41,252 bases of DNA, taken from Planctomycetota bacterium (GTDB lineage Bacteria; Planctomycetota; Phycisphaerae; UBA1845; CAIVHJ01). The notes under the pieces are model-generated. The model was not told the origin of the DNA, did no database searches, and saw only the letters and a list, made by a program, of their open reading frames with translations. The translations under genes and the position numbers were made by a program. Positions 14,928 through 40,454 of this stretch are shown piece by piece (the stretch's first letter is position 1; every line of letters begins with the position of its first letter). The DNA lies in contig JACZTW010000001.1 in assembly GCA_022573485.1 (NCBI GenBank), positions 1-41,252 on the forward strand, given 5' to 3'.

Positions 14928-14967
14928 AAACGAATGTCGTTCATCAGAGAGACAGTAGTCGATAGAC

Positions 14968-21952: not shown

Positions 21953-24151
21953 ATGAACATTCAACAAGCACGGCAGCAGATTATCGCGCTCCGGCAGCAG
22001 GGGAAGAAATACGCCGTGCTCGATGTCGGCTGGCGGTATCTGGCGGCGGTGCCTGACGACACCGAGATCACGGAGTTGGTGCTTGGAGGGCTGCTGGATG
22101 TCGGTTTGGGCGGGCTGGTCCGCGAGTTGCTCCAACTCCGCGGGGATCTTGATCAACAGGCGGCCAAGAAATGGCAGGCCGCTGCCGATGCGGTGCCGGT
22201 GGGGCGCGTGCCCTGGACGGAGCTGGCCGACACCTATCGAGCGAATCTCGCTCTGCTGATCGCCAATCATCCACACATGGCGGAACATGAACAGGCGTTG
22301 GAGCAGTCGTTGCGCGGTCTACACTTGTACCGTACGACGGATGGGCACCATCTGCTGTCGCGTCGCCAGGCCGGGCATTACCGCGAGTGGCTGCCGGCGA
22401 TCACGGACCATACGCACGACGTGAAAATGGAGCTACCGGAGCTGCGCCACGGTACGCCGATCTTCATCGACGGCATTTCGCTCGGCCCGATCGTGGAGCG
22501 CGTGTTTGATGCCACGGCTTCGATCGGCCTCAATCAGAGTTTGCCGGTGTTTTTGGTTGATGAAGAATTGTCTCACCTGGCGGCATGGCTGCACGTGGCG
22601 GATCGCTCGAAGCAGCTTGCGGATGAACGGTTCTTCGTGTTCTGCGGAGCGCGGGCGCTCGATGACCTCGTGGAGTTTCTTGACGGACATGACGATCTGG
22701 CCAGCGCGCCCTGTTGCGCGATCACGCCGCCGGGTGTCGTCGCGCTGCGGGACAAGTTGATGTCTCTTCATGCGGGCGTCCTGTTGCGCCGACAGAACGC
22801 ATACTTGGAAATCGTGAAGCAACTGAAGGATCGCTACGCCCAGCGCGACCTGGACTACTGGCGGGCTCGGGTGCAGGACAAAGGTCCGGTTATTGCGGTG
22901 ACTTCGCGGGCGACAACGATGTTGCAGTACTCTGCCCGAGATATTGGGCATGCACTCGAAGATATGGGCTATGAGTTCCACTTGCTGATCGAAGCAGCGG
23001 ATCATCTTCAGCTTACGGGACTTCATGTTGTGCGGCACATCTTGGAAGTCGATCCAGTGTTATGCGTGCTGATCGACCATCTTCGCTGCGAGCAAGACAA
23101 ACTGCTGTTCAACATTCCGACGCTGACCTGGGTGCAGGATCCGCTTCCGAATTTGCTCAATGCCCAAGCCGGGGCATCGATCGGGCCCCTTGATTTTGTG
23201 TGCGGCTATTATCAGGATCGTCTGGTGGGTGAGTTCGGCTATCCCGAGTCGCAGTTCATCGTCGCTCCGTTTCCAGTCTCGACGCGTGCGTTCCACGCGG
23301 ATCCGGTTTCAACAGATCACGGGCCGGAGTACGACTGTGACATCGTTTACGTCGGCCACATGCCGGGCACGATGGAGTCGCACTTTGCGAAGTGGCACGG
23401 CGACAGCCCGGCCGAAATCGGGCCGTTTCTTCAGATCCTCTACGAACGCGTCAAAAATGTTCTGGACAGTGGAAAACACATTACGCTGCCGGCCGTGTTC
23501 TTACGCGGGATCGTGAACGAACTTGGCGTGCGCATGGACGAAAAGGAATTCGAGAATCTGGCCTACGCGTTCGCCTACCGCCTGTTCGACCTGGGCTATC
23601 GGCAGCAGACATTGTCGTGGGTCGGCGAATGGGCCCGGCGGACCGGGCGCCGGTTCCGGATCTACGGCAGAGGTTGGGATGATCATTCAGAGTTGGGCAG
23701 TTTCGCAGCCGGTCCGATCGCGCATGGCGAACCGTTGCGGCGTGTGTATTGCTCCACGCCCCTTGTCTTGCAGTGCATTCCGGGCGGTTTCATGCATCAG
23801 CGGACCTACGAGGCAATCGCCTGCGGCGCACTCGTTCTGGTGCGCTTCAGTCCCAAGGATTTCTATCAAGTCTCCGTCGAAGAGTGGACGCGGCGCACCG
23901 CAGCCGGTGAAGTGATGGACAGCGCTGCCAACGACTTCCCAGGCCTCGCAAAACTCGTGTTCCACGATGCCGCAGAATTTGAACAATCAGCGGAAAAGTA
24001 TTTACAAGATCGCCGCACGCGCGAACGCACATTGGCGCCGATTCGCGATGTGGTGCTCCAAAAATACACCTACGCCAGTGTGATGAAGCGAATCATGACC
24101 GAGATCAAGCAGCGCCTGGGCACGGCCGAACTGGCTGAGGCCGCTCGCTGA
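21953..24151 (+). CDS. Large two-part protein: unknown N-terminal ~350 aa plus a C-terminal CgeB-like (GT-B, Glyco_trans_1_2-type) glycosyltransferase domain
   Basis: The C-terminal region has ...DCDIVYVGHMPG..., ...RFRIYGRGW... and ...HQRTYEAIACGALVLV..., a pattern seen in CgeB-family/DUF3880-type proteins. The N-terminal part has no motif I can name with confidence. Confidence 0.5.
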   Translation: MNIQQARQQIIALRQQGKKYAVLDVGWRYLAAVPDDTEITELVLGGLLDVGLGGLVRELLQLRGDLDQQAAKKWQAAADAVPVGRVPWTELADTYRANLALLIANHPHMAEHEQALEQSLRGLHLYRTTDGHHLLSRRQAGHYREWLPAITDHTHDVKMELPELRHGTPIFIDGISLGPIVERVFDATASIGLNQSLPVFLVDEELSHLAAWLHVADRSKQLADERFFVFCGARALDDLVEFLDGHDDLASAPCCAITPPGVVALRDKLMSLHAGVLLRRQNAYLEIVKQLKDRYAQRDLDYWRARVQDKGPVIAVTSRATTMLQYSARDIGHALEDMGYEFHLLIEAADHLQLTGLHVVRHILEVDPVLCVLIDHLRCEQDKLLFNIPTLTWVQDPLPNLLNAQAGASIGPLDFVCGYYQDRLVGEFGYPESQFIVAPFPVSTRAFHADPVSTDHGPEYDCDIVYVGHMPGTMESHFAKWHGDSPAEIGPFLQILYERVKNVLDSGKHITLPAVFLRGIVNELGVRMDEKEFENLAYAFAYRLFDLGYRQQTLSWVGEWARRTGRRFRIYGRGWDDHSELGSFAAGPIAHGEPLRRVYCSTPLVLQCIPGGFMHQRTYEAIACGALVLVRFSPKDFYQVSVEEWTRRTAAGEVMDSAANDFPGLAKLVFHDAAEFEQSAEKYLQDRRTRERTLAPIRDVVLQKYTYASVMKRIMTEIKQRLGTAELAEAAR

Positions 24152-25058
24152 TCGTTCGCTGATAGTGATACCCGATTCGAAAGCAAATGAACTTCAAATA
24201 GGGCAGGTTCCAGTTCATGCGAATGAGGTTGGCGAGAAGATTGGACAGAACCCGCGCTCGCGACAGGTACAAGCCCGATTCAAACCCGTGTCGCGCCTCC
24301 AGCATATATTGACTGCGTCCGTGGTTGAAGGCTCGCCGGAGAATGAAGCGGCGCGTCAGCCGTTCGCCGGTGGCCCGGTGGTGGACGGGGGCTGCGGGCG
24401 TGTAGTGAATCTCCCAGTCGCGTTGCTCCATTCTCAAGCAAAGCTCCCCTTCCTCGCCGGCCAGCAGTCCGGCACCGCTGCGTCCCAGTTGGGGCAGGAA
24501 ACCACCGACCTCGTCGATGGCCACGCTTCGGACCGCAAAGTTCCCGCCGTAAGGAAATCGAGGGTATCGGAGTTGCGTCTGCTCGTCGCTCGGTGAAAAT
24601 CGGCCCATGGCTTCGTCGAGCCGATCGTCCCACCAGCGCGGCTTGGGCGCATCCCATTGCACTTCAATACGGCCGCCGACAACGCCCGCGCACGGATGGG
24701 CATCAAACACATCAGCGAGTGATTCAAGCCAGCTTTCTTCCGCCACTGAATCGGCATCGAGAAACGCGACCAGCGGTGCAGCGGCTTGGGCGAGCGCTCG
24801 ATTTCGGGCGTGAGAAAGGCCTTGTTGCGTTTCGGAAACCACGCGGAGGCGATGGCCGAACCGTTCCTTCAGTTCGTGAAGGACATTTGGTGTTTCGTCG
24901 GTGCTGTTATTGTCCACGACGAGCACTTCGTACGCATCCGCCGGCAGCGTTTGCGCCATGACGCTCTCGACAACGTCGGCGAGGTGATGAGCGGCGTTGT
25001 ACGCGCAGATTGCGGCAGTGATTCGATTATTGGATTGTGTTTCAGTAGACGAGTTCAT
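24105..25058 (-). CDS. Family 2 glycosyltransferase (GT-A)
   Basis: ...ITAAICAYNAAHHLADVVESVMAQT...YEVLVVDNNSTDET... and the DAD motif (FLDADS) are classic GT2 features. Its 3' end overlaps the convergent 21953-24151 gene by 47 nt. Confidence 0.88.
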   Translation of the reverse strand: MNSSTETQSNNRITAAICAYNAAHHLADVVESVMAQTLPADAYEVLVVDNNSTDETPNVLHELKERFGHRLRVVSETQQGLSHARNRALAQAAAPLVAFLDADSVAEESWLESLADVFDAHPCAGVVGGRIEVQWDAPKPRWWDDRLDEAMGRFSPSDEQTQLRYPRFPYGGNFAVRSVAIDEVGGFLPQLGRSGAGLLAGEEGELCLRMEQRDWEIHYTPAAPVHHRATGERLTRRFILRRAFNHGRSQYMLEARHGFESGLYLSRARVLSNLLANLIRMNWNLPYLKFICFRIGYHYQRTISERPQPVRPCPGAA

Positions 25059-25149
25059 TCTGAGGTATCGCGCGCATTCGCAGGACCGCTACACGTCTCA
25101 CCTTAGCGGCGCAATTCGAGAGAGCAAGCGTGTGCTGAGCGGCTGGCGC

Positions 25150-25158
25150 TGCTATAAT
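25150..25158 (+). promoter_or_regulatory. Candidate extended -10 promoter element TGcTATAAT upstream of the long glycan operon
   Basis: TGCTATAAT at 25150-25158, 40 nt upstream of the ATG at 25199, in the divergent region between the GT2 gene and the radical SAM gene. It is the same 9-mer as at 12656. Confidence 0.3.
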
Positions 25159-25198
25159 CGGAGTCGCATCGGATGCGTGAGTCCTATGAGGGCGTCAA

Positions 25199-26146
25199 AT
25201 GGACTGGATCGCCGGGAAGCACAGACCGTTCCCAACTCATATCCAAATTCAAACCACTTCCGCCTGCGGTGCGGCCTGTCAAATATGTCCGCATCCTGTC
25301 GAATCGCCTAACTGGCCCAACGGCTTGATGGGTGATGAGTTATTTGTTCACATTGTTTCGCAATTGCAGGGGCGCGCGATTGAGTACCTCTGTCCCTACT
25401 TGATGGCGGATCCAATGTCGGATCGCAGGATCTTCGATCGAGTGGAGGCCCTGCGCCAGGCTCTGCCGCAAACGACCCTCGAGATGAGCACAACCGGCCT
25501 CTATTTGGTTCCGAAACTGGCAGATCGGCTGCTGGAGTCGCCAATCTCGGAGTTGCGTATCAGCAGTCACGGGATTTCAGCCGCCGAATATGCCACGACC
25601 ATGCCGGGCGTCGATTTTGCTAAAGCAATGCCCAACATCGAGCGTTTCATTTCTGCTTGGAGCGCGCACAAGCCGTTCAAGTTGAGCGTGGTTTGCCTGT
25701 GGGGACTTTGGCCGGCGGATCGAGAGCGGGAAATCGAGGCATTCTGGAAAGAAAAGGGCGTCGAGCTGTCCAAGTGGCGCGTTATTTCACGGGCCGAACA
25801 AGTTGACCTGACGATCTACGGCGAGGCCGAGGCCGATCCGACGCCGTATCACGAAGGCAAACAAGCACCGCCGTATCTCTGTCGCCATCACCGCGACACC
25901 CAATGGCTGCACATTCTGAGCGACGGCAGAGTGACGTTGTGCTGCATGGATTATCGTCACGAAGAGATCCTCGGCGATGTTCGTGAGGCGTCGTTGGAGG
26001 AAATCTGGAACAGCGAGGCGTTCGAGCAAGCGCGCGCCCGAATTCGGGGTGATGCGCCCGCAGGTCCGAACTTCCTGTGCGATCGCTGCGAATATCACGT
26101 CAGCCGATCCGTTCATGAGCAGCGCGCGTTGGAGGCGGCGCCTTGA
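25199..26146 (+). CDS. Radical SAM enzyme with a C-terminal SPASM/twitch-like Cys-rich domain
   Basis: CGAACQIC (CxxxCxxC) occurs near the N-terminus. The C-terminal cysteines are ...YLCRHH...VTLCCMDY...FLCDRCEY. Confidence 0.85.
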   Translation: MDWIAGKHRPFPTHIQIQTTSACGAACQICPHPVESPNWPNGLMGDELFVHIVSQLQGRAIEYLCPYLMADPMSDRRIFDRVEALRQALPQTTLEMSTTGLYLVPKLADRLLESPISELRISSHGISAAEYATTMPGVDFAKAMPNIERFISAWSAHKPFKLSVVCLWGLWPADREREIEAFWKEKGVELSKWRVISRAEQVDLTIYGEAEADPTPYHEGKQAPPYLCRHHRDTQWLHILSDGRVTLCCMDYRHEEILGDVREASLEEIWNSEAFEQARARIRGDAPAGPNFLCDRCEYHVSRSVHEQRALEAAP

Positions 26147-28041
26147 GCAAATCGCTGACGTTTCTGCTGGATCGCGACGACTTGGCCTGCCTCGAGGCTC
26201 TCTGCCCGGCGGCCTTGAGCGGTACGATTGTTGCCTTTGATCCTGACTTACACATTGAGCTGCTGTCGCGGGAGGTGGCTCACGTTACTCCCTGGAGTTT
26301 TGTTGGAAGCGCCGAACTCGATGCGGTCCGGGAGTTTGAGCAGGCGGTGTGGGAGTTCTGGCGGGCGAACGCAAGCGCGCCGTTCGCCGGCATGGACTTG
26401 CTGCACATGGTCTCCTTTCGGCACCGCAGTTGCTTCAGCCGCATCGCCTGGGCGGCGTATGTGATCAGGCGGGTGTTCGAGGAAGTTCAGCCGCGGGAAG
26501 TTGCGGTGTTCGAGGAGCGCACAGGCCACGGTTTGGAGCAGCCGCCGGAACATAACAAGATGCCGTTGTTGCAAGCGTTGGTTCGCGGTGCGGCGGAGCA
26601 GGGCGGTGTGGCTGTTCGGTTGCTGCGGCGCAAGGAAGTGCCCGGGCACGGCGAGTTCGTGGACTGGACCGCGAAGAAGAGCACGGTGACGCTGCCCAAG
26701 GTTGACCTAGAGGAGGCACTGCGGGGCCGGCCTTACGTTTTGATGCCGGGCAGCGGGGTGGATTTGCTGCGTCCACTGCCGTTGGCGCGGGCGTTGCATT
26801 CCGATGGCGAGTTGGCAGTGGTTCAATTGTACAAGTCGGCGAGGCCGGAGGTGCTCAAGCAAGCCCAGGACGCCGGGCATTTTGTGTGGCACGAGTCGCA
26901 GGTCGTCGGCAATGCGGGCCCGTCAGCCGCCGCCACTTGTTTCAAAGGCTGTCGCGACCGGTTCGATCAGGCGCGGCAACGCGTTTCCGGTCATCTGCGG
27001 TCGATATTTGCCAATCCGTACATGAATATCCACTTCGATTTTATTTTCGGTGAATACTTGGCGAAGATGGCGTGGAATGTTTACGCCGCGAAGTCGTTTC
27101 TCGAACGGCATCCTCCTCATGCATTGGTCGCGACGAGCTACAGCCCGCTGAACGATGTGGCTTGCGCGGTGGGCATACCCTGCCTTGGGCTGCCGCACGG
27201 CGCCATGATGGTCGGCAACGTTCGGTGGTTCGAGGGTTACCGATCGTCGGTCATCGGGGCTCTGTCTACTCCTCATCGGCAGCGACTCATCGAGGCGGGG
27301 ATCGGCGCGGACCGTGTCGTGGTTACCGGTGATCCCAGTCTCGACGCAACGTCGCCGCCTGAGGCGGTTGATCCGCTGGCGACTCTGCGCGCATCACAAT
27401 GCCGGCAGCGGTGGGGCGTTGATTCGAATCAGCGCGCCGTATTGCTGGTGATGGGCAACATGGGGATGCTGGCCAAGCTCGGCGACCTGCCGGTCTACGA
27501 TTGGTCGGAATCGGTGCGCTGCCTTCGAGAGTTGGGCGCGATGGCGCCTCGTCATCCGGATTGGCGCTTCGTGGTGCGTCCGCATCCGCGCTACGACCAT
27601 GCAGGCTTGTACGAGTTGATCAATCGCGAGCTGCCTAAGCAACAACACTTCATCGTGGACGGCGCAGACACGCTCGAATCGGCAGTGCGGGCTGTCGATG
27701 TGGTCGTGATTTGCAATGTTCTGACCTCTGCGATCTTGGAATCCTCGCTGTGGGGCAAACCTGTATTCGTGCTGTCGCAGAGCATGATTTGGTATCAGGC
27801 TGCCGATTGGGCTACGGGGCGATGGCCTCATGTGCGGTCGATCGGGGAGCTGGAGCGGGAGTTGGAAGAAATGTTTACGAAACAAAATCGGTACAAAGAG
27901 CGTGCCAGCCAGACGCGCGCGGCGGCGAAGGAGTACTCAAGGGGTGCTCCGGCACGGGGCATCCGGGCATGCCTGGACTTGATCTACTCCATGAAGTCTC
28001 GCGCGAACGCGCCGTGCGCTCTTGCAGCGTCCGCACGATAA
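26143..28041 (+). CDS. 632-aa protein of unknown function; the C-terminal half resembles a GT-B fold (epimerase_2 / TagF / capsule-synthesis-like)
   Basis: Motifs VVVTGDPSLDA, LLVMGNMG and FVVRPHPRYDH recall GT-B sugar-nucleotide enzymes. The TTG start overlaps the radical SAM stop (TTGA). Family assignment is weak. Confidence 0.4.
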   Translation: MSKSLTFLLDRDDLACLEALCPAALSGTIVAFDPDLHIELLSREVAHVTPWSFVGSAELDAVREFEQAVWEFWRANASAPFAGMDLLHMVSFRHRSCFSRIAWAAYVIRRVFEEVQPREVAVFEERTGHGLEQPPEHNKMPLLQALVRGAAEQGGVAVRLLRRKEVPGHGEFVDWTAKKSTVTLPKVDLEEALRGRPYVLMPGSGVDLLRPLPLARALHSDGELAVVQLYKSARPEVLKQAQDAGHFVWHESQVVGNAGPSAAATCFKGCRDRFDQARQRVSGHLRSIFANPYMNIHFDFIFGEYLAKMAWNVYAAKSFLERHPPHALVATSYSPLNDVACAVGIPCLGLPHGAMMVGNVRWFEGYRSSVIGALSTPHRQRLIEAGIGADRVVVTGDPSLDATSPPEAVDPLATLRASQCRQRWGVDSNQRAVLLVMGNMGMLAKLGDLPVYDWSESVRCLRELGAMAPRHPDWRFVVRPHPRYDHAGLYELINRELPKQQHFIVDGADTLESAVRAVDVVVICNVLTSAILESSLWGKPVFVLSQSMIWYQAADWATGRWPHVRSIGELERELEEMFTKQNRYKERASQTRAAAKEYSRGAPARGIRACLDLIYSMKSRANAPCALAASAR

Positions 28042-28055
28042 GGAATCCGTGACTC

Positions 28056-28760
28056 ATGATGATTGGAGCAATCATTCAGGCGCGGATGAGTTCGGTGCGG
28101 TTGCCCGGCAAGGTCTTGATGAAGGCTGCGGGCCGGACCGTGCTGCAGTACGTCATCGAGCGATTGAAACAATGTACCGCACTCGATGGGATCGTCGTCG
28201 CCGTTTCGACGGATGATCGCGATACGCCTATCGTGAAGCACTGCGAAGAACTCGGCGTGGCGGTGTGCCGTGGCAGCTTGGATGATGTGGCGCGGCGATT
28301 CCTGGATGCTGCTGAGCGGTTCGGATTCGATGCGTTTGTGCGCGCGTGCGCCGACAGTCCTTTGCTCGATGCGGACCTTGTGGATCGTGCCGTAGAGCGT
28401 TACCGAGAATGCAAATGTGATATCGTGACAAACGTGATGCCGCGGACCTACCCGCATGGGCAATCGGTGGAGGTCGTTCGGACGGAGCTTCTGCGAGCGA
28501 CGTGGCCGAAGCTGAGCACGCCGGAACATTTGGAACACGTGACGTCGTTCTTCTATGAGCATAGGTCGGATTTCAGCATCGTGAACCTCTGTGCGCCGCG
28601 CGACATGAGTGGCCTGCGCCTGGTGGTTGATACTGAGGAAGATTGGGAGCGGTTTACCCGGATCGTGGATCGTTTTGTGGGGCCGCATTGGCAGTACGGC
28701 CTCGCGGAGATCATCGAGATTTGTGAATCGCTCGACGTGTGTGGTGTGGAACAAGCTTGA
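28056..28760 (+). CDS. Cytidylyltransferase of the SpsF / acylneuraminate cytidylyltransferase family
   Basis: GAIIQARMSSVRLPGKVL...VIERL...DGIVVAVSTDDRD matches the N-terminal signature of SpsF-type (CMP-sugar synthetase-like) enzymes. Confidence 0.8.
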   Translation: MMIGAIIQARMSSVRLPGKVLMKAAGRTVLQYVIERLKQCTALDGIVVAVSTDDRDTPIVKHCEELGVAVCRGSLDDVARRFLDAAERFGFDAFVRACADSPLLDADLVDRAVERYRECKCDIVTNVMPRTYPHGQSVEVVRTELLRATWPKLSTPEHLEHVTSFFYEHRSDFSIVNLCAPRDMSGLRLVVDTEEDWERFTRIVDRFVGPHWQYGLAEIIEICESLDVCGVEQA

Positions 28761-29764
28761 TGGTCAAGTTGCGAGCGGGCATCATTGGTCTGGGCGTCGG
28801 CGAACAGCACATCGTCGGCTATGACAAGCACCCGCAGTGTGAGGTTGTCGCGTTGTGCGATTGTGACGAGCGGCGGTTGGCGGATGCCCGACGAAAATAC
28901 CCCGCCATGCAACACTACAGCAATGCCGACGATTTGTTGGCGGAGCCGGGGATCGACGTGGTGTCGATCGCTTCGTACGACAACGACCACTACGGGCAGA
29001 CGCGGGCGGCGATCCTGGCGGGCAAGCACGTCTTTGTGGAGAAGCCTCTGTGCCTTTATCCGGAAGAAGCGCAGGCGCTGCGAATACTGCTGAACGATCA
29101 TCCCGAGGTCCTGCTGTCCTCCAATTTGATTCTGCGTAAGGTGCCCCGGTTTGTGGAACTCCGACGCCTCATCGCCGACGGCGAGCTGGGGGAGTTGTTT
29201 CACGTCGAGGGCGATTACAATTATGGGCGCCTGCACAAGATCACGGAGGGCTGGCGCGGGCAGCTCGATTTCTATTCCGTTGTCTATGGCGGCGCGGTTC
29301 ACTTGATTGATTTGCTGCTGTGGTTGACCGGCGACCGAGTCATCGAAGTGTCCGCCGTGGGGAACGCCGTTGCTTCTCGCGGGTCGCAGTTTCAATTCGA
29401 TGATTTGGTGGTCGCTCTGTTGCGCTTCGAAAGCGGCATGGTCGGAAAGGTGAGCGCCAATTACGGCTGCATGGTGCCGCACTTCCATGGATTGACGATT
29501 TACGGTACGAAAGGGACATACATCAACGGCGCGCGCGATGCACAGTTGTATCATTCTCGCGATCCCGATCAGCCGCCACGGACGATCACAACGAAGTACC
29601 CGGGCGTTCACAAAGGCGATTTGGCTTACGACTTTGTCGAGTCGATCGTGAGCGGCCGTGTACCGCTGGTGACTATGGAAGACGTGTTTCGAGTGATGTC
29701 GGTGTGCTTTGCAATCGAGCAGGCTCGCGACCGGGGTGGGGCGGTTGAGGTGGAATACATTTGA
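28760..29764 (+). CDS. Gfo/Idh/MocA-family NAD(P)-dependent oxidoreductase
   Basis: MVKLRAGIIGLGVGEQH... is the Rossmann N-terminus, followed by ...KHVFVEKPLC... (the EKP motif). Its ATG overlaps the previous stop (TGATG). Confidence 0.85.
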   Translation: MVKLRAGIIGLGVGEQHIVGYDKHPQCEVVALCDCDERRLADARRKYPAMQHYSNADDLLAEPGIDVVSIASYDNDHYGQTRAAILAGKHVFVEKPLCLYPEEAQALRILLNDHPEVLLSSNLILRKVPRFVELRRLIADGELGELFHVEGDYNYGRLHKITEGWRGQLDFYSVVYGGAVHLIDLLLWLTGDRVIEVSAVGNAVASRGSQFQFDDLVVALLRFESGMVGKVSANYGCMVPHFHGLTIYGTKGTYINGARDAQLYHSRDPDQPPRTITTKYPGVHKGDLAYDFVESIVSGRVPLVTMEDVFRVMSVCFAIEQARDRGGAVEVEYI

Positions 29765-29777
29765 CGGAGATTCGTTG

Positions 29778-30926: not shown

Positions 30927-30927
30927 C

Positions 30928-33602: not shown

Positions 33603-34612
33603 GAATCGCCGACGCTGATTTGAGTGAGCGTGTTCTGATCGTCGCGGAGATCGGCAACAATCACGAGGGCAATTATGCCTTGGCCGAGGAGATGATTGGC
33701 CGGGCTGCCGAAGCTGGCGTCGATGCTGTGAAGTTCCAGACATTCCGAACCGAACACTACGTCAGCCGACGTGACGACGCGCGTTTCGAGCGTCTCAAGT
33801 CGTTCGAGCTGACCCACAGCGAATTCACCAAGCTCGCGGTTGTTGCCCGGCAGGAAGGAGTGATCTTCCTGTCGACGCCGTTCGATCTGGAGAGTGTGCG
33901 GTTTCTCGATGGGCTGGTGCCGGCGTTCAAGATTGCGTCGGGCGACAATACGTTTTATCCATTGCTCGACGCAGTGGCGCGGACGGGCAAGCCGATCATG
34001 CTTTCGACGGGACTGGCCGATACGACCCAAATCAGGCAGGCGAAGGCCGTCATCGAGACCGCCTGGGCTGAGAAGGGCGTCGATCCTGGCCTGGCATTGT
34101 TGCACTGTGTCAGCAGTTATCCCGTGCCGCCGGCGCAGGCCAACCTGGCGTCGATCGGGCAACTTCGTGCGGAGTTCGATTGCACCATCGGGTATTCGGA
34201 TCACACGCTGGGGATTGAGGCCTGCCGCGTCGCCGCGTCGCTGGGGGCCCGGATCATCGAGAAACATTTCACGCTCGACAAAAACCACTCCCAATTCCGC
34301 GACCACCAATTGTCGGCGGACCCCGGAGAGATGGCCGACGTTGTGCAGGCGGTACGCCAGACTGAAACACTGCTCGGATCGGGCGAAAAGTGCCCCCAGG
34401 AGTGCGAGCACTCAGCGGAGCGCACCATGCGGCGGTCGATCGCGGCTGCGCGTGATTTGGCCTGCGGGGCCATCATCACTTGGGAGGACATCACCTGGGT
34501 GCGGCCCGGCGGGGGGCTGCCGCCGGGGAAAGAGCATGTGATATTGGGTAGGAAATTGGCAAAGCCGGTGCGCGGGGGTGATCGCATCACGCTCGAATCA
34601 GTGCAGGAATGA
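33599..34612 (+). CDS. Nonulosonic acid synthase (NeuB / PseI / LegI family) with a C-terminal SAF domain
   Basis: ...VLIVAEIGNNHEGNYALAEEMIGRAAEAGVDAVKFQTF... and ...IGYSDHTLG... are the NeuB-family signature. Its ATG overlaps the GNAT stop (ATGA). Confidence 0.88.
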   Translation: MRIADADLSERVLIVAEIGNNHEGNYALAEEMIGRAAEAGVDAVKFQTFRTEHYVSRRDDARFERLKSFELTHSEFTKLAVVARQEGVIFLSTPFDLESVRFLDGLVPAFKIASGDNTFYPLLDAVARTGKPIMLSTGLADTTQIRQAKAVIETAWAEKGVDPGLALLHCVSSYPVPPAQANLASIGQLRAEFDCTIGYSDHTLGIEACRVAASLGARIIEKHFTLDKNHSQFRDHQLSADPGEMADVVQAVRQTETLLGSGEKCPQECEHSAERTMRRSIAAARDLACGAIITWEDITWVRPGGGLPPGKEHVILGRKLAKPVRGGDRITLESVQE

Positions 34613-34621
34613 GCGCGTCGT

Positions 34622-35332
34622 ATGAGGCTGGTGATTCTGACGACGGAGACATTGCACCACTGCTACTTCGTTCGCGAGGTGACGGCGTCGAATCCGGTCG
34701 ATCTTGTCGTCATCGAGCGCGATCACCCGATCGCGCCGTTTGATACGCACCACGCCTTCGAGGATCAGCGTGACGCTTACGAACGGGCGACCTGGTTCGG
34801 CGACGGTCGTGCGTCAATCGAGGAGTTCGCCGAGACGCTGGAAGTCAAATCCGCCAACGATCCCGATGCCATCGATCGCTTGCGGCGGATACGGCCCGAA
34901 GTCATCATCGTGTTTGGCACGGCCAAGCTATCGCGGGCGGTCATCGAGACTTGCTCAAACGGAATTGTCAACCTGCACGGCGGCGATCCAGAGCATTATC
35001 GCGGACTCGATTCGCGTCTGTGGGCGATTTATCACGGCGAGTATGAGCAGTTGATGGTCACGCTTCACCGCTTGAACGATCGTCTGGACGACGGCGAGAT
35101 CGTCGTGCAACGCCCGCTGCCGCTTCGCCGCGGTATGGGGATCCACGAACTCCGCCGCGTCAGCACTGAAGTCTGCGTGGCTGTGGTTCGCACAGCTCTG
35201 GGACAATGGGTCGGTGATGGAGGCTTCACCTCCCGTCCTCAGCGACGGCCGGGCCGGTATTATTCGTTCATGCCGGCAGTGCTCAAGGAATTATGCAGGA
35301 GTAAATTCGAGGCCTATACGCGAGAACTGTGA
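34622..35332 (+). CDS. Formyltransferase-like protein (Fmt/PurN N-terminal domain fold)
   Basis: ...IIVFGTAKLSRAVIETCSNGIVNLHGGDPEHYRGLD... resembles the formyltransferase catalytic loop (N.H.s.LP.yRG). Confidence 0.6.
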   Translation: MRLVILTTETLHHCYFVREVTASNPVDLVVIERDHPIAPFDTHHAFEDQRDAYERATWFGDGRASIEEFAETLEVKSANDPDAIDRLRRIRPEVIIVFGTAKLSRAVIETCSNGIVNLHGGDPEHYRGLDSRLWAIYHGEYEQLMVTLHRLNDRLDDGEIVVQRPLPLRRGMGIHELRRVSTEVCVAVVRTALGQWVGDGGFTSRPQRRPGRYYSFMPAVLKELCRSKFEAYTREL

Positions 35333-36238
35333 ATGGAAGGTGTGGATCGACTCACAACCGACGGATTGGCCATCTTCTTGTTCCACGGCGTGGTTCGGCA
35401 GTCCCGCTATGCAGTGCGCAACTATACCGGCAAGCACATGGAGCGCGATCGATTCTATCGGATCGTCGAGGGGCTCAAGCACGCGGGCAGCGCGCTCTCG
35501 ATGGATGAGGTGGTCGATCATTGCCAGTCCGGCAGGCGGTTCCCGCCGCGTGCATTCGTGGTGACGTTCGACGACGGCTTCGAGAACAACTTCTCGATCG
35601 CGGCCCCGATTCTCAAGGAGTTCTCAGTGCCGGCGACGTTTTACATCACCACTGGTTTCGTCGAGCACAATGCCATGTCCTGGATCGACCGTATCGAGCA
35701 CTGCCTGGAAGAAGTCTCGTCCGGCGTGTTGCAGTTTGGGTGGGATGAGCGGACGCACTCATTTGCAACGGTTGAAGATAAGATCGGCGTGCTCAAGCTC
35801 ATCCGCGATCGAGTGAAGACCGATCCGAAGATCGATTCTGATGAGGTAGTTGAAATGGTATGCGCGCAGTGCGGCGTGGCAGAGGTTTGCCACAGCGCGG
35901 AGCCGATCGATCAAAAAATGAGCTGGGAGCAAGTGGCCCGGTTGGGCGATGACGAACTTTTTACGATCGGCGGGCATTCGCACGGGCACAAGATACTGTC
36001 GTTTCTGTCCGCCGAGGAACTCGAAGCCGAGATTGCGACGAGCATCGACTTGATCCAAGAGAAAATTGGCCTGCGCGTGCGGCATTATTCCTATCCGGAA
36101 GGATTGGAGCACTGTTATTCGAATGAAGTGATCGAAGTGCTGCGCGGCCAGGGCGTCGTCTGTTGCCCGACGGCGGTGGACGGCATCAACGACCCGCAGA
36201 CAGACTTGTTTCGCCTGCGGCGGATCATGATCACGTAG
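35333..36238 (+). CDS. Polysaccharide deacetylase (NodB/CE4 family)
   Basis: ...FVVTFDDGFENNFSIAAPILKEFSVPATFYITTG... plus a downstream His motif (GGHSHGH). It starts directly after the previous stop codon. Confidence 0.85.
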   Translation: MEGVDRLTTDGLAIFLFHGVVRQSRYAVRNYTGKHMERDRFYRIVEGLKHAGSALSMDEVVDHCQSGRRFPPRAFVVTFDDGFENNFSIAAPILKEFSVPATFYITTGFVEHNAMSWIDRIEHCLEEVSSGVLQFGWDERTHSFATVEDKIGVLKLIRDRVKTDPKIDSDEVVEMVCAQCGVAEVCHSAEPIDQKMSWEQVARLGDDELFTIGGHSHGHKILSFLSAEELEAEIATSIDLIQEKIGLRVRHYSYPEGLEHCYSNEVIEVLRGQGVVCCPTAVDGINDPQTDLFRLRRIMIT

Positions 36239-36256
36239 CGAGGACGGAACCGATCG

Positions 36257-38134
36257 ATGTGCGGAATCGCCGGACATATTGGAACGCGGGCGATCGACGA
36301 GGAGCGGGTCTCGTCTGCGCTGGGGTTGATGAAGAACCGTGGGCCGGATCATCAGGACAGTGTGGCATTCCGGCATGGCGAACTGCACGTCTCGCTGCTG
36401 CACTCGCGCTTGAGCATCATCGATCTGGAGCCGCGATCCAATCAGCCGTTCACGATCGGCGATTGCACGCTGGTCTTCAACGGTGAGATTTACAATTACA
36501 TTGAGTTGCGGCAGCGTTTGCGGGCACGCGGTGTGACGTTCCGGACGGAGTCGGATACGGAGGTGCTGCTGCAATCCTATTTGACCTTCGGCGCGGATTG
36601 CGTGAATGACTTCGAGGGCATGTGGGCCTTCGCGATTTATGATCGGCGGAGCGGCGTGTTGCTGCTGTCGCGGGATCGCTTTGCCGAGAAGCCGCTGTAC
36701 TACGCGCAGACGGGTCGTGGTGTGTTCTTCGGATCGGAAGTCAAGTTCATCCGCGCCCTGATGGGCCGGCGACCGCCGCTGAATCTGCGGCATCTCTCGC
36801 GGTATCTCGTGAACGGATACAAGTCTCTGTACAAGACGTCGGATACATTCTTCGAGGGCGTGTGCGAAGTGCCGTACGCGACCGCGCTGAGCATCGGCGC
36901 GGACCTTGAGCCGCATCAACGCCGCTACTGGAATCCGACCCATCAGCCGGTGGCCATGACGTTGGACGAGGCGGTTGAGGGTTTTCGTGAGCGCCTGTAC
37001 GACAGCGTGCGGCTGCGCCTGCGCGCCGATGTGCCCATGGCGTTTTGCTTGAGCGGCGGGGTCGATTCCGGCGCTCTGGCATCCATAGCTGCCAAGGAAT
37101 TCAACCACAACGTACACGCGTTCTCAATCATCGACGCCGATCCGCGATACGACGAGTCGGCCAACATTCAGGCCACCGTCAACGACCTGTCGTGTGAACA
37201 TGCGACGATCACGATTAAGCGGTCATCCTCGCTCGATGAACTGGAGCACTTGATCCGCTGCCATGACGCGCCGGTCTATACGATTTCGTACTACATCCAC
37301 GCCATGCTCTCACGAGCCATGGCGGAGCGCGGTTTCAAGGTGGCCTTTTCCGGTACGGGTGCCGACGAACTCGTCACCGGCTATTACGATCACTTCAACC
37401 TGCACTTGTACGAGCTGCGCGAGCACGCGGACCATGCTCAGTGGGTGGACGACTGGAACACGCACGTTCGCCCGCTGGTGAGGAATCCGCATCTGCGGAA
37501 TCCGTCGCTGTATATCGAGAATCCAAGCGCCCGGGCGCATGTGTTCATGCACAGTGATCGCTTCGCGGGGTTTCTGAAGCAGGAGTTCCGTGAGTCGTTT
37601 CGTGAAGAGCACTTTTGCGATTCACTGCTGCGCAACCGCATGATGAACGAGCTGTTTCACGAAGTTGTGCCCGCCATTCTGCACGAAGATGACCTCAACT
37701 CGATGCGCTATTCGATCGAGAACCGTAGTCCGTATCTGGACTCCAGGCTGTTCGAGTTCGCCTATTCGATCCCGCCTGAACACTTGATCCGCGACGGGTT
37801 TGCCAAATACGTGCTCCGCGAGGCCGTCAAAGGCACTTTGAATGAGCAGGTGCGAACGGACCGCCGTAAGGTCGGCTTCAATGCGTCGATCGGCTCGCTG
37901 TTTGATTTTCGCTCGCCGAACGTGCGCGAACGGATTCTCGAGGACGGGCCAGTCTATGAACTGTTGCATCAGTCGAAGGTGGCCTCGCTGCTCGATCAGG
38001 ACCGATGGACCAATAGTGAGAGCAAGTTTCTGTTCAACATCGTATGCGCAAGGCTGTTCCTGGACATCGAGGACGAGCAGCCGATACAGCCCACTGCGTC
38101 TATGGAGCAGTCGTTCGTCGGCACAGCCACGTGA
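36257..38134 (+). CDS. Asparagine synthase (glutamine-hydrolysing)-like amidotransferase
   Basis: MCGIAG provides the N-terminal nucleophile Cys2. The PP-loop is ...FCLSGGVDSGALA... A 625-aa length is typical of AsnB paralogues found in glycan clusters. Confidence 0.88.
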   Translation: MCGIAGHIGTRAIDEERVSSALGLMKNRGPDHQDSVAFRHGELHVSLLHSRLSIIDLEPRSNQPFTIGDCTLVFNGEIYNYIELRQRLRARGVTFRTESDTEVLLQSYLTFGADCVNDFEGMWAFAIYDRRSGVLLLSRDRFAEKPLYYAQTGRGVFFGSEVKFIRALMGRRPPLNLRHLSRYLVNGYKSLYKTSDTFFEGVCEVPYATALSIGADLEPHQRRYWNPTHQPVAMTLDEAVEGFRERLYDSVRLRLRADVPMAFCLSGGVDSGALASIAAKEFNHNVHAFSIIDADPRYDESANIQATVNDLSCEHATITIKRSSSLDELEHLIRCHDAPVYTISYYIHAMLSRAMAERGFKVAFSGTGADELVTGYYDHFNLHLYELREHADHAQWVDDWNTHVRPLVRNPHLRNPSLYIENPSARAHVFMHSDRFAGFLKQEFRESFREEHFCDSLLRNRMMNELFHEVVPAILHEDDLNSMRYSIENRSPYLDSRLFEFAYSIPPEHLIRDGFAKYVLREAVKGTLNEQVRTDRRKVGFNASIGSLFDFRSPNVRERILEDGPVYELLHQSKVASLLDQDRWTNSESKFLFNIVCARLFLDIEDEQPIQPTASMEQSFVGTAT

Positions 38135-38141
38135 AGTAGCT

Positions 38142-38741
38142 ATGTGGAACTGGATTCGCACACTGTATTGGAGGCTGAAGCTGCGGACGTGCGGCGCGCG
38201 GGTTGGCAGGAAGTTTCGCGTTCGGGGGCCGCTTGAGGTCTTGCTTCGCGACGGTGCTTCGTGGCGCAATATCACCATTGGTGACGATGTGACGCTCGGC
38301 GGCAGGACTTACATTCGCCTGCGAAAGAATGGGCGGATTGCGATCGGCAATGGAGTGAGCACTGGTTCAGAGGTGTGGTTCGTGGGCGCCAACGACGCAG
38401 AATTGGCTGTGGGCGATGCGACGACCATCGGCAGCTATTGCATTCTGAACGGCGGCCATGGGCTGCGGCTCGGGGCCCATTGTATTCTCGCGGCGTTTGC
38501 GTACTTCAACAGCTCGGATCACGCCTTCGTCCGGGGCGATTTGATTCAACGGCAGGGCTTTGTCGGCGCGCCGATCGAAGTGGGTGATGACGTGTGGATC
38601 GGCGGGCATGTGTACGTTGGCAAAGGCGTGACCATCGGGCGGGGGAGCGTGATCGGTGCGGGTGCGGTTGTGGTGCGGGACATTCCAGAGTACAAAGTGG
38701 CGGTGGGTAATCCCGCGCGAGTTGTGAAAAATCGAGAGTGA
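38142..38741 (+). CDS. Hexapeptide-repeat (left-handed beta-helix) acyl/acetyltransferase
   Basis: ...IGDDVWIGGHVYVGKGVTIGRGSVIGAGAVVVRDIPEYKVAVGNPARVV... The start is trimmed to the Met at 38142. Confidence 0.88.
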   Translation: MWNWIRTLYWRLKLRTCGARVGRKFRVRGPLEVLLRDGASWRNITIGDDVTLGGRTYIRLRKNGRIAIGNGVSTGSEVWFVGANDAELAVGDATTIGSYCILNGGHGLRLGAHCILAAFAYFNSSDHAFVRGDLIQRQGFVGAPIEVGDDVWIGGHVYVGKGVTIGRGSVIGAGAVVVRDIPEYKVAVGNPARVVKNRE

Positions 38742-38747
38742 TCCACG

Positions 38748-39887
38748 ATGAAGAAGCTGACCTACTGCACAAAATGCGTCATGCCGGACTCCAAGCCGTT
38801 TCTGACTTTCGATGCCGACGGTGTGTGTGCTGCCTGCCAGGCTCACGAGACCAAACAGGCGCACCTCAACGGCATCGACTGGACTGCGCGCCGGCGCCAG
38901 CTTGACGAGTTAGTCGAACAGGCCAAGGAAAGGAAGGCACCGTTCTACGACGTGCTCGTGCCGGTGAGCGGCGGCAAGGACAGCATCTTTCAAGTCCACA
39001 TTGCCATGAAGTATGGCCTGCGCGTTTTGGCGGTGAACGTGGACTACGGCATCAAGACCGAGATCGGCCGTCAGAATCTCGAGTTGATTCCGAAGATGGG
39101 GGCTTCGCTGATCATCATCAGGCCAGAGCAAAAGTTCCACACTCAAATGATCCGCCTCGGCTTCGAGGACTACGGCGACCCGGACCTGATGAGTCACGGG
39201 CTGCTGTTCGCCTATCCATTGTGGACGGCGGTCCAGTTTCAAGTGCCGCTGGTGTTCGAGGGCGAAAACTCGGCCTTCGAGTACGGCGGGGACGAAGCCT
39301 CACGGCGGAAATTCCACATCGATCGCGCGTGGTTCCTCAAGCATGTTATGACCAAAGGCATCACCGTCCAGGACATCTGTGCGAAGTACGATATCCCCGA
39401 GCGCGTTTTGAAGGTCTACGATTTTCCGGAAGCGGAACTCGCTGCCGCGAATATCGAAGCTGTTTTCCTGAGCAGCTTCTTTCCGTGGGATTCGGAGACG
39501 CACCTGGAGATCGCCAGGGAATACGGGTTTCAATCGCTGCGCGAGCCGCGCGAAGGCACATTCCGCGATTACGTGGGCATCGACGAGAAAATCAACCGCA
39601 TTCATCAATACATGAAGGTGCTCAAATTCGGCTACGGCAGGGCGACCGACCACGCCTGCGAAGAGATTCGCAGTGGGCGAATGACGCGCGCGGAAGCGAT
39701 CACAATCGTCCGCAGCCATGATCGCCGGGATCTTTCGGATTATTATGTGGATGATTTCGTTGATTTGCTGCGCTGTTCCAAAGAGCAGTTCTGGGCGGTG
39801 ATGGACAAGTATCGTAACGGGGAGATTTGGGGGGAAGTGGACGGGCGGTGGCAGTTGGACGATTCGGCGCTGGATGAATCGCTATGA
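38748..39887 (+). CDS. N-acetyl sugar amidotransferase (PP-loop ATPase; WbpG/WbuX/PseA-like)
   Basis: MKKLTYCTKCVMPDSKPFLTFDADGVCAACQ is an N-terminal Zn-ribbon-like motif. ...VPVSGGKDS... is the PP-loop. Confidence 0.82.
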   Translation: MKKLTYCTKCVMPDSKPFLTFDADGVCAACQAHETKQAHLNGIDWTARRRQLDELVEQAKERKAPFYDVLVPVSGGKDSIFQVHIAMKYGLRVLAVNVDYGIKTEIGRQNLELIPKMGASLIIIRPEQKFHTQMIRLGFEDYGDPDLMSHGLLFAYPLWTAVQFQVPLVFEGENSAFEYGGDEASRRKFHIDRAWFLKHVMTKGITVQDICAKYDIPERVLKVYDFPEAELAAANIEAVFLSSFFPWDSETHLEIAREYGFQSLREPREGTFRDYVGIDEKINRIHQYMKVLKFGYGRATDHACEEIRSGRMTRAEAITIVRSHDRRDLSDYYVDDFVDLLRCSKEQFWAVMDKYRNGEIWGEVDGRWQLDDSALDESL

Positions 39888-39972
39888 TGCTGAGTCTCCA
39901 GGGAGTCGGGCGGTCGGATGGAATGTTGTGTTGCTAAAACAACTCGTGGCCATACGCCGACCGTCTTCGGTA

Positions 39973-40039
39973 GGGCTGCTAAACGGCAAGCCAACGGCTG
40001 GGTCTCTCGATGTGACTTCGTCGTTTGGCAGACGTTGCG
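39973..40039 (+). repeat. Copy B (reference copy) of the ~67-nt intergenic repeat; able to form a 10-bp stem CTGCTAAACG / CGTTTGGCAG
   Basis: GGGCTGCTAAACGGCAAGCCAACGGCTGGGTCTCTCGATGTGACTTCGTCGTTTGGCAGACGTTGCG. Related copies lie at 12469-12535 (minus orientation) and 14865-14927. Confidence 0.55.
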
Positions 40040-40112
40040 CACTGCGCTTTCCATTCAGAAACCAATTGTTCGGGCGAACATTCGGTAGTGGGAGGGAAGT
40101 ACATAGAATCTC

Positions 40113-40454
40113 ATGAGAATTGAGACGAGCAATCCACGGCGCGTGTTTCAAGTGGGCCTGCGCAAGCAGATCGATATTTCCGACTGCGGTCGTGTCTATC
40201 TGGAGCCGGACGAGCAAGTCACCTTCGTTACGCCCAGCGGCAAGGAACATGACTTCGTCGCCAAAAGCTGGGGTTTCTACGCCACGCCCTCAATCAACGG
40301 CCGGCTCGCCGATCAGGGCTTCAAGACCGCCTTGGTCAAGAACAGCTTCGGCAAGTACTACATCATGGTCGTCGATCCGGATCAAATGGCCGACTTCAAC
40401 GCCTATCTCGAAATCGAGCGCCACGAAATAGCTGAGTGGCTCGACGAGCGCTGA
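40113..40454 (+). CDS. Small (113 aa) soluble protein of unknown function
   Basis: A clean ORF beginning MRIETSNPRRVFQVGLRKQIDISDCGRVYLEPDEQVTFVTPSGKEHDF..., with coding-like composition. I recognise no motif. Confidence 0.5.
   Translation: MRIETSNPRRVFQVGLRKQIDISDCGRVYLEPDEQVTFVTPSGKEHDFVAKSWGFYATPSINGRLADQGFKTALVKNSFGKYYIMVVDPDQMADFNAYLEIERHEIAEWLDER

Follow-up and report, generated by a model that had tools for sequence, protein, structure and literature searches.

We analyzed a 41,252-nt stretch of DNA from a member of the Phycisphaerae (Planctomycetota bacterium, assembly GCA_022573485.1, contig JACZTW010000001.1, positions 1 to 41,252; hereafter the window). On its forward strand, positions 25199–40454 form a single tightly packed operon of 15 co-directional genes in the open reading frame (ORF) map. 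On balance we read it as a native operon for an N-acylated amino-nonulosonic acid activated with cytidine monophosphate (CMP). It represents a widespread, uncharacterized type of cluster that differs from the canonical pseudaminic (Pse), legionaminic (Leg) and neuraminic (Neu) acid clusters in the lineage of its enzymes and in two missing steps, and that in the Phycisphaerae is coupled to lineage-specific soluble glycosyltransferase-like proteins.

A previous sequence-only reading had described the region as a nonulosonate island rich in modifying enzymes. All genes and families that it listed were found where it had placed them or within a few codons of those positions, with strong Pfam and NCBIfam matches confirming the families, and a NeuB-family synthase and a cytidylyltransferase amid many modifying enzymes support a nonulosonate cluster. 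The tight packing in one direction that it described held with intergenic gaps of −4 to +18 nt, except for two longer spacers that precede the GNAT gene (162 nt) and the final gene (225 nt). The genes of the operon are as follows.

25199–26146 (+): radical SAM/SPASM-twitch enzyme, first gene of the operon (SPASM 5.7e-14, weak Radical_SAM)
26143–28041 (+): 632-residue protein (U632), proposed CMP-nonulosonate glycosyltransferase (predicted GT-B fold, HP motif)
28056–28760 (+): SpsF/KdsB-like cytidylyltransferase for CMP activation of an ulosonic acid (PF02348 CTP_transf_3, 1.9e-24)
28769–29764, alternative start 28739 (+): Gfo/Idh/MocA oxidoreductase (PF01408, PF22725, PF02894)
29778–30926 (+): DegT-family pyridoxal phosphate-dependent sugar aminotransferase (PF01041, 2.1e-108)
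30928–31971 (+): extended short-chain dehydrogenase/reductase (SDR), 4-epimerase type (PF01370, 164 bits; SSSMVYG motif)
31968–32699 (+): class I S-adenosylmethionine-dependent methyltransferase (PF13847, PF13489)
32862–33602 (+): WecD-like GNAT N-acetyltransferase (PF00583, 4.1e-16)
33599–34612 (+): NeuB-family nonulosonate synthase with SAF domain (PF03102, 2.9e-73)
34622–35332 (+): formyltransferase N-domain protein, ArnA-N/Fmt-like (PF00551, 1.4e-12; NF005414 and ArnA matches)
35333–36238 (+): CE4 polysaccharide deacetylase/deformylase-family protein (PF01522, 5.5e-19)
36257–38134 (+): AsnB-type glutamine amidotransferase (TIGR01536, 389.1 bits against a cut-off of 267.1)
38142–38741 (+): hexapeptide-repeat acyltransferase, WcaF/WbbJ-like (PF00132, 2.1e-13; NF007797, 1.7e-22)
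38748–39887 (+): WbuX/PseA/PtmG-type PP-loop N-acetyl-sugar amidotransferase (TIGR03573, 313.9 bits)
40113–40454 (+): conserved 113-residue protein (homologues follow WbuX in related loci)

The true start of the hexapeptide transferase gene is 38142. Two further ORFs (39874–40116 and 40436–40771) were rejected as genes, as their translations are Arg/Ser-rich and of low complexity, match no family and have no homologues in related loci. A promoter and terminator scan of the operon returned site counts fewer than, or no more than, those in shuffled sequence.

The operon is native and is not a horizontally acquired island. The sequence-only reading had called the region an island and suggested looking for a shift in composition. 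GC content was flat across the window (0.55–0.63), the GC content at third codon positions was 0.71 in the operon versus 0.75 in other genes (a difference of about one standard deviation), and codon frequencies of the operon and the rest of the window were correlated at 0.915. A tRNA scan of the window found none, only chance-level repeat pairs occurred in it, and no integrase was present among the flanking genes in the family matches of the window proteins. A mobile island was ruled out by the flat composition and the lack of a tRNA or repeat boundary. The same genes, at 97–100% identity, are carried by a 12.9-kb metagenome scaffold (ENA ERZ23499190), and the 732-residue glycosyltransferase encoded upstream of the operon (GT732) has a counterpart with 98% identity in a “Planctomycetes bacterium” metagenome-assembled genome (MAG) from NCBI.

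Conserved gene order and core enzymes

The conserved order comprises the genes for the CTP_transf_3 cytidylyltransferase, Gfo/Idh/MocA oxidoreductase, DegT aminotransferase, SDR, GNAT acetyltransferase and NeuB synthase, plus AsnB, WbuX and the 113-residue protein. The same order was found in Phycisphaerae/Planctomycetales MAGs (loci L008, L018 and L019), in a Chloroflexi MAG (L025) and on plasmid p5 of Azospirillum brasilense (L024). In L008, the run from cytidylyltransferase to synthase is contiguous with 45–69% amino-acid identity to the window, a range that also describes the block in other Phycisphaerae and other phyla. The run is also present in L019, where a full-length formyltransferase takes the place of GNAT and AsnB follows; L018 and L006 additionally have AsnB, a methyltransferase, WbuX and the 113-residue gene, and the Chloroflexi MAG has both modules of the block. 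A search of plasmid proteins with the synthase gave one outlier at 52.8% identity, the remaining matches being at or below 40%. This outlier is located on plasmid p5 of A. brasilense MTCC4039 (NZ_CP032350.1; L024, 6100–15150), where a partial cytidylyltransferase gene, the genes for Gfo/Idh/MocA, DegT, SDR, GNAT, NeuB, AsnB and WbuX, and the 113-residue gene lie in exactly the order of the window. On the plasmid, either sequencing error or decay has left the Gfo/Idh/MocA and DegT genes apparently frameshifted and the cytidylyltransferase gene apparently partial.

Orthologues of the Gfo/Idh/MocA oxidoreductase in L008, L019 and L025 share 54–63% identity with the window protein, and those of AsnB in L006, L018, L019, L024 and L025 share 49–60%. 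AsnB, WbuX and the 113-residue protein are part of the conserved core and not idiosyncratic tailoring, so the first two, which the sequence-only reading had counted among a rich tailoring set, belong to a block conserved across phyla. Specific to the window are the radical SAM/SPASM enzyme, the methyltransferase, the short formyltransferase, the CE4 protein and the hexapeptide transferase; L008, L019, L024 and L025 have no methyltransferase gene between SDR and GNAT. The Chloroflexi locus contains a Polysacc_synt_2-type SDR about 15 kb from the block. NCBIfam, including the BFO_1060 family and TIGR04396, gave no match for a 370-residue Chloroflexi protein with a “YHPGH” sequence that adjoins the block, and was uninformative for a 232-residue ORF of the window (21273–21971), the 113-residue protein and two Azospirillum neighbors, one of which matched generic tetratricopeptide-repeat (TPR) models.

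The synthase ORF (33590–34612) matched PF03102 with 246.7 bits (cut-off 22.1) and SAF with 24.0 bits (cut-off 21). Its best-scoring equivalog model was NeuB/NnaB (TIGR03569; 304.1 bits, below the cut-off of 399.65), followed by PseI (TIGR03586; 248.0 bits, below 340.25). Against solved structures it was about equidistant from CjPseI, the sialic acid synthase 6ncs, SpsE and NmNeuB (160–136 bits). We compared the synthase and the aminotransferase with clusters annotated by the NCBI pipeline PGAP, namely a Sulfitobacter LegB-LegC-NeuC-NeuB cluster, Agrobacterium and Parabacteroides PseBCFGIH clusters and an A. lipoferum NeuB. The synthase was 38–41% identical to LegI/NeuB (38% to LegI), 34–35% to PseI and 53–57% to its syntenic homologues. 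In neighbor-joining trees, which with only four (NeuB) and three (DegT) PGAP-named references show separateness and not stereochemistry, both proteins grouped only with their syntenic homologues (53–68% identity). The phylogenetic placement suggested by the sequence-only reading thus set both enzymes outside the Pse and Leg reference clades; NeuB and LegI are not separable by phylogeny (PMC8208679), and stereochemistry is therefore not callable from sequence.

The DegT aminotransferase scored best among NCBIfam models with PseC (TIGR03588; 308.7 bits, below the cut-off of 423.5), followed by LegC (TIGR04181; 217.9 bits, below 420), and was 30% identical to PseC and 28% to LegC references. Its best matches in the Protein Data Bank (PDB) were ArnB and perosamine synthase, both C4 aminotransferases, at about 200 bits versus 124 bits for the C3 aminotransferase WbpE. 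The GNAT protein matched the WecD model NF008212 (1.1e-21, residues 54–284 of the longer ORF) and by analogy would act on a nucleoside diphosphate (NDP)-4-amino sugar. A DegT enzyme near the C4 aminotransferases and a WecD-like GNAT fit C4 amination and acylation of a nucleotide sugar, the classical 5,7-diamino logic. The best PDB match of the cytidylyltransferase was 6oew, “Cytidylyltransferase” (1.8e-34), and its PseF score was 28.5 bits (TIGR03584, cut-off 205.7). The Gfo/Idh/MocA gene adjoins the cytidylyltransferase gene and in this respect, by gene position, resembles the PtmF “oxidoreductase” gene, which adjoins LegF in Leg clusters (PMC4481668). The oxidoreductase itself matched UDP-GlcNAc 3-dehydrogenase with 82.6 bits, and its sugar-active matches were mostly C3 dehydrogenases, including glycoside 3-dehydrogenases.

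The catalytic site of the SDR (YLSSSMVYG and YGALK) is strictly conserved in four orthologues. Where it reads SSSMVYG, the PGAP-named LegB has STSETYG and the PseB references have STDK, and a Met takes the place of the Glu of the LegB motif. Sugar 4,6-dehydratases require an acid/base residue at this position. The best PDB matches of the SDR were the 4-epimerases WbpP and WbgU, its Pfam score was 164 bits for PF01370 versus only 23.7 for PF02719 (Polysacc_synt_2), and its LegB score was 84.6 bits (TIGR04180, cut-off 475). Judged by these motifs and matches, the SDR is of the epimerase type and not a 4,6-dehydratase; its assignment as LegB or PseB was rejected because the acid/base residues of the dehydratase motif are not present. 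As the only SDR of the cluster has Met in place of the acid/base residue, no 4,6-dehydratase is recognizable and the cluster itself encodes no enzyme for the first committed step, contrary to the earlier view that 5,7-diamino enzyme logic is encoded as such. In Bacillus subtilis, the Leg dehydratase gene spsM is unlinked to spsC–G (PMC7439481), and a dehydratase encoded elsewhere is therefore the conservative reading. Searching the literature for the related SDR deposited as PDB entry 8VR2 yielded nothing of relevance.

The 632-residue protein and the soluble glycosyltransferases

U632 matched no Pfam family above threshold. Exact look-ups with translations of the window returned nothing, and the 632-residue protein itself was found in the protein collection as P0001. 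Of 5.8 billion proteins no more than 22 share words with it; an exhaustive profile search widened the family to 101 representatives (E 1e-30) and 621 (1e-10). The 14 genome loci that encode relatives all belong to Phycisphaerae/Planctomycetales MAGs, except one from an unclassified bacterial MAG. Its AlphaFold2 (AF2) model (predicted local distance difference test score, pLDDT, 89; predicted template modeling score, pTM, 0.90) consists of an extra N-terminal alpha/beta domain and a GT-B fold. Foldseek ranked UDP-GlcNAc 2-epimerases first (Escherichia coli WecB and Neisseria meningitidis 6vlb, which we take to be the hydrolyzing UDP-GlcNAc 2-epimerase of that species), with a best E of 7e-12 and a target-normalized template modeling (TM) score of 0.70, and generic GT-B glycosyltransferases were close behind. 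H481-P482, an HP motif, is invariant in 21 sequences of the family. VTG(D/N)P and HP-type motifs occur at equivalent places in U632 and the 2-epimerases.

Family models pointed in more than one direction. Epimerase_2 weakly matched 16 of the 21 members (best 4e-7; U632 itself 17.4 bits versus a cut-off of 30.6), and the BFO_1060 family (NF046086) weakly matched 17 (best 1.6e-7), the latter covering only the C-terminal domain of U632 (residues 465–592; E 1.6e-7, 30.8 bits versus a cut-off of 200). Leptospira-type “surface carbohydrate biosynthesis” models also matched the family. Among ten distant relatives of 750–840 residues, two matched Capsule_synth, the family of the KpsC/S 3-deoxy-manno-octulosonic acid (Kdo) transferases, with P0102 exceeding the cut-off, and two had matches below the cut-off to a putative-glycosyltransferase domain of unknown function. 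BFO_1060 is the family of Tannerella forsythia Tanf_01245 and TFUB4_00887, which transfer Pse/Leg derivatives onto an O-glycan, as established by knockout, complementation and glycan mass spectrometry, and which carry an HP motif (PMC5420450). H481-P482 of U632 is the putative equivalent of this motif.

The gene context also joins U632 to glycan genes. Its family adjoins a GT732 homologue in eight other loci and nonulosonate genes in nine, L008 contains an operon-like GT2-U632-GT732 run, and a GT2 gene lies directly 5' of the U632 homologue in L008, L019 and L021. In L021, the homologue is beside GT2, Bac_transf and Poly_export genes, which argues that lipid-linked glycans can also be served by the family. 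Given the GT-B fold, the invariant HP motif, the lack of the epimerase carboxylates, the absence of a significant LegG/NeuC/PseG match and this context, U632 is probably a CMP-nonulosonate transferase.

The sequence-only reading had instead considered U632 as a possible source of the missing NDP-sugar hydrolase or hydrolyzing 2-epimerase, the equivalent of LegG, NeuC or PseG, in which case GT732 or GT2 would carry out the transfer. The nearest predicted folds, including 6vlb, the weak Epimerase_2 matches and the position of U632 as second gene of a biosynthetic operon are in keeping with this proposal, and no other candidate for the hydrolase step was found in the window, L008 or L019. Catalytic D95, E117 and E131 of E. 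coli WecB, in contrast, aligned to Y333, P351 and a non-conserved position of U632 in a profile alignment of low confidence (hhalign probability 24%), and the U632 profile had no significant match to the Leg-cluster NeuC named by PGAP (E 0.13) or to Agrobacterium PseG (E 0.33). U632 is missing from the syntenic Azospirillum and Chloroflexi clusters, it coexists with a PseG-like gene in L004, and its homologues accompany glycosyltransferases in L007, where nonulosonate genes are missing within 10 kb, as well as GT2, Bac_transf and Poly_export in L021. The nearest predicted fold agrees with the earlier guess, a transferase function is the better fit, and we consider the hydrolase role unlikely.

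Two other loci show the family in different company. In L007 (7488–17410, Planctomycetales MAG CAYUQT010000017.1), a GT732 paralogue, the U632 homologue, a B12-binding radical SAM protein, a second GT732 paralogue and a radical SAM/SPASM protein that is 50% identical to the product of window gene 25199–26146 form a self-contained module flanked by housekeeping genes. After the U632 homologue in the Phycisphaerae MAG loci L004, L012 and L020 (10001–21830) come genes for DUF4910/DUF2172, sulfotransferase, Methyltransf_21 and B12-radical SAM proteins and then a Pse-type set (PseB-like SDR, DegT, Gfo/Idh/MocA, short-chain SDR, cytidylyltransferase and PseG-like genes), of which the visible part in L004 lacks only PseH and PseI. 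These three represent a different decorated nonulosonate locus that shares the candidate transferase family.

Two glycosyltransferase genes lie between positions 21953 and 25058.

21953–24151 (+): GT732, 732-residue soluble glycosyltransferase (PF13524 Glyco_trans_1_2, CgeB-like)
24105–25058 (−): soluble GT2 glycosyltransferase (PF00535, 9.2e-31)

Position 24105, at which the sequence-only reading had begun its island, is the 3' end of this minus-strand GT2 gene, which it had not named; it had also overlooked GT732, and both genes bear on the acceptor. The GT2 gene runs towards GT732 and away from the operon. GT732 matched PF13524 with 1.7e-15 over residues 556–715, and its AF2 model (pLDDT 91.5) has N-terminal helical repeats, alpha/beta domains and a C-terminal GT-B fold. 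A sequence search against the PDB gave no usable match for GT732, whereas Foldseek retrieved GT4-type glycosyltransferases and, at low TM score and at the level of architecture only, the TPR plus GT-B protein glycosyltransferases OGT and SPY. GT732 is part of the glycan system, and its modeled likeness to OGT and SPY may serve as a lead towards protein glycosylation, not as a test of it.

GT732, GT2 and U632 have no transmembrane (TM) segments. In agreement with the earlier reading, Pfam matches and hydropathy revealed no Wzx, Wzy, ABC, GT-C, Bac_transf or export genes in the whole window, whose polytopic membrane proteins are limited to an amino-acid permease, NuoA and a polyferredoxin. A predicted lipoprotein of 477 residues, with CarboxypepD_reg repeats and a signal peptide whose end is a lipobox-like stretch containing Cys, is encoded 750 nt upstream of GT732 (19768–21201, −); it is possibly a surface protein, and nothing links it to the glycan system.

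Accessory enzymes and other genes of the window

The WbuX-type amidotransferase was the sole protein to exceed the curated cut-off of a pathway-specific model (313.9 versus 203.2 bits for TIGR03573), and the match covers model positions 2–344 of 344. The AsnB-type protein is above its equivalog cut-off and retains the N-terminal Cys (MCGIAG), and its fixed position before WbuX suggests that it supplies ammonia or forms a second amide. The 113-residue protein belongs to a family of at least 930 sequence clusters that are nearly always about 113 residues long and have no Pfam domain, and itself matches no NCBIfam family. It is 60–70% identical across Planctomycetota, Chloroflexota and Azospirillum, and its gene lies directly downstream of a WbuX-type gene in four of five loci inspected, the homologues after WbuX sharing 59–66% identity in L006, L018 and L025 and 50% in L024. 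It is thus a candidate for an uncharacterized partner subunit of WbuX-type amidotransferases.

The radical SAM/SPASM protein has the motif CGAACQIC (CxxxCxxC), and its only PDB match was the auxiliary-cluster domain of the sugar dehydrogenase BtrN. A literature search found no paper linking radical SAM/SPASM enzymes with nonulosonates. The hexapeptide transferase is, from its family matches, probably an O-acetyltransferase. The formyltransferase–CE4 pair, taken together with an ArnB-like DegT, recalls by analogy the formylation/deformylation logic of the Arn system.

Several other genes of the window were noted. A 762-residue protein (6566–8854, +) combines an N-terminal GT4 domain (about residues 20–365) with a C-terminal extension of about 390 residues that has no Pfam match. 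An overlapping pair (3487–5096, −) encodes a McsB-like ATP:guanido phosphotransferase and a McsA-like UVR-motif protein. A 584-residue ORF (4650–6404, +) matches no family, overlaps the mcsA-like gene on the opposite strand and is unlikely to be coding along its entire length. Unrelated to the glycan cluster is a run (12626–17184, +) of DUF6599, DUF362 and a 738-residue membrane polyferredoxin that has several 4Fe-4S domains and is predicted to cross the membrane in five TM segments.

Proposed route, alternatives and significance

In the route that we propose, the DegT enzyme would transaminate an NDP-4-keto-N-acetylhexosamine at C4, the keto sugar coming either from a dehydratase encoded elsewhere, as is spsM of B. 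subtilis, or from the oxidoreductases of the operon. The GNAT enzyme would N-acylate the resulting amine, and the formyltransferase and CE4 protein may provide a transient or alternative N-formylation. The sugar would then be released and condensed with phosphoenolpyruvate by NeuB, and the nonulosonate product would be activated with CMP. WbuX would turn one N-acetyl group into an acetamidino group, AsnB probably donating the ammonia or amide, and the methyltransferase, the hexapeptide O-acetyltransferase and the radical SAM/SPASM enzyme would add decorations confined to this lineage. U632 would transfer the CMP-nonulosonate and, together with soluble GT2 and GT732, build the glycan in the cytoplasm, on a protein or a lipid-linked glycan as acceptor encoded outside the window.

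Comparison with known systems places the operon near several pathways. It shares with the CMP-Leg pathway (Campylobacter jejuni LegB/C/H/G/I/F and PtmA/E/F/G/H; Sulfitobacter faviae plasmid NZ_CP139727.1) a NeuB/LegI-type synthase, a DegT enzyme, a Gfo/Idh/MocA gene beside the cytidylyltransferase gene as in PtmF-LegF, and a PtmG/PseA-type amidotransferase, and its methyltransferase could parallel PtmH. Unlike that pathway, the operon has no LegB and no LegG/NeuC, and a WecD-like GNAT stands in place of the hexapeptide LegH. The CMP-Pse pathway (PseB/C/H/G/I/F and PseA) likewise has a GNAT-type N-acetyltransferase, a PseA-like amidotransferase and a CTP_transf_3 enzyme, whereas the operon lacks PseB and PseG, and the PseI and PseC references, at 30–35% identity, fall in other clades.

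The operon parallels the Leg pathway of the B. subtilis spore crust (SpsM, C, D, G, E and F; PMC7439481) in its SpsC-like DegT, SpsD-like GNAT, SpsE-like NeuB and SpsF-type cytidylyltransferase. In contrast to it, the operon has no SpsG-type hydrolase, adds the Gfo/Idh/MocA oxidoreductase, the epimerase-type SDR, AsnB, WbuX and the 113-residue protein, and resides in a host that does not form spores. The glycan machinery of the B. subtilis crust is soluble and includes the GT2 protein SpsA and CgeB, which has a Glyco_trans_1_2 domain as does GT732.

U632 resembles T. forsythia Tanf_01245/TFUB4_00887 and the KpsC/KpsS CMP-Kdo transferases as a soluble GT-B protein with a C-terminal HP motif encoded beside CMP-nonulosonate genes. 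It differs in being about 190 residues longer, in its extra N-terminal alpha/beta domain and in having no clear D/E-D/E-G motif. The UDP-GlcNAc 2-epimerases (WecB; NeuC/SiaA/LegG) are its best fold match, but D95/E117/E131 are not conserved. As for ArnA/ArnB/ArnD, ArnB is the best PDB match of DegT and an ArnA-N-like formyltransferase gene lies directly beside the CE4 gene, CE4 being the family of the deformylase ArnD; the operon nevertheless lacks an ArnA-type decarboxylase, ArnT and an ArnC-type membrane step, and the formyltransferase–CE4 pairing is specific to the window and lies outside the conserved block.

Several observations weigh against the proposed route. No core enzyme reaches the NCBI equivalog cut-offs for Pse, Leg or Neu. 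Neither a 4,6-dehydratase nor an NDP-sugar hydrolase/2-epimerase is recognizable in the cluster or its syntenic relatives, and no operon protein matched the NCBIfam PseG models at E ≤ 1e-5, so that the classical route is incomplete as encoded; the lack of a PseG, LegG or NeuC had already been remarked on. The likeness of U632 to nonulosonate transferases is weak and no stronger than that to Epimerase_2, and as U632 is the only protein of 2-epimerase fold in the window, L008 and L019, the argument that it fills the gap is a real one. The roles given to the Gfo/Idh/MocA, SDR, radical SAM, AsnB and 113-residue proteins are guesses.

The two gaps might instead reflect a non-canonical route that does without both 4,6-dehydratase and NDP-sugar hydrolase and leads to an undescribed class of nonulosonate, for example a 9-hydroxy 5,7-diamino sugar. 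In one variant C4 would be oxidized without 6-deoxygenation; in another, the nonulosonate or CMP-nonulosonate would be oxidized and transaminated late, by the Gfo/Idh/MocA or radical SAM enzyme and DegT. In all three phyla where it recurs, the block itself contains no dehydratase or hydrolase gene, the SDR is epimerase-type, and neither the synthase nor the aminotransferase shares a clade with the Pse and Leg references. KdnA, a Kdo8N aminotransferase that acts after ulosonate formation, outscored PseC in comparison with DegT (159 versus 147 bits), and the auxiliary domain of the radical SAM enzyme resembles BtrN. The WecD-like GNAT and a DegT nearest to NDP-4-keto-sugar aminotransferases, however, indicate nucleotide-sugar chemistry, an unlinked dehydratase has a precedent in B. 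subtilis, the Chloroflexi Polysacc_synt_2-type SDR is some 15 kb away, and the MAG is incomplete. We regard a non-canonical route as unlikely. The broader proposition that the block is a self-sufficient third amino-nonulosonate route and that, in the Phycisphaerae, a new HP-motif GT-B transferase family (U632) attaches its sugar alongside GT732 as a cytoplasmic protein glycosyltransferase seems improbable to a similar degree.

WbuX-family enzymes are not specific to nonulosonates, as seen in WbpG of Pseudomonas aeruginosa O5 and WbuX of E. coli O145. Two interleaved pathways, in which the Gfo/Idh/MocA, DegT, N-acetyltransferase, WbuX and AsnB enzymes would make an acetamidino, amidated 2,3-diamino hexuronic-acid-type sugar (WbpB/WbpE/WbpD/WbpG/WbpS logic) and NeuB and the cytidylyltransferase a plain nonulosonate, would accord with the mostly C3-dehydrogenase matches of the oxidoreductase, but are very unlikely given that WbpE scored well below the C4 aminotransferases, that no UDP-GlcNAc 6-dehydrogenase is present, that the NeuB and cytidylyltransferase genes are embedded and co-conserved in one fixed order across phyla, and that a Gfo/Idh/MocA gene beside the CMP-synthetase gene is normal in Leg clusters.

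To our knowledge, nonulosonic acids shape bacterial surfaces, and almost all that we know of them comes from pathogens and the three canonical routes (Neu, Leg and Pse); we also know of few nonulosonate transferases. The amino-nonulosonate cluster described here lacks the first and fourth canonical enzymes, and its product would either broaden the routes already known or be a sugar new to the field. It is accompanied by two unannotated families, the 113-residue partner of WbuX and the candidate nonulosonate transferases of about 630 residues with a GT-B fold, and the copy on the A. brasilense plasmid provides a culturable entry point to the block.

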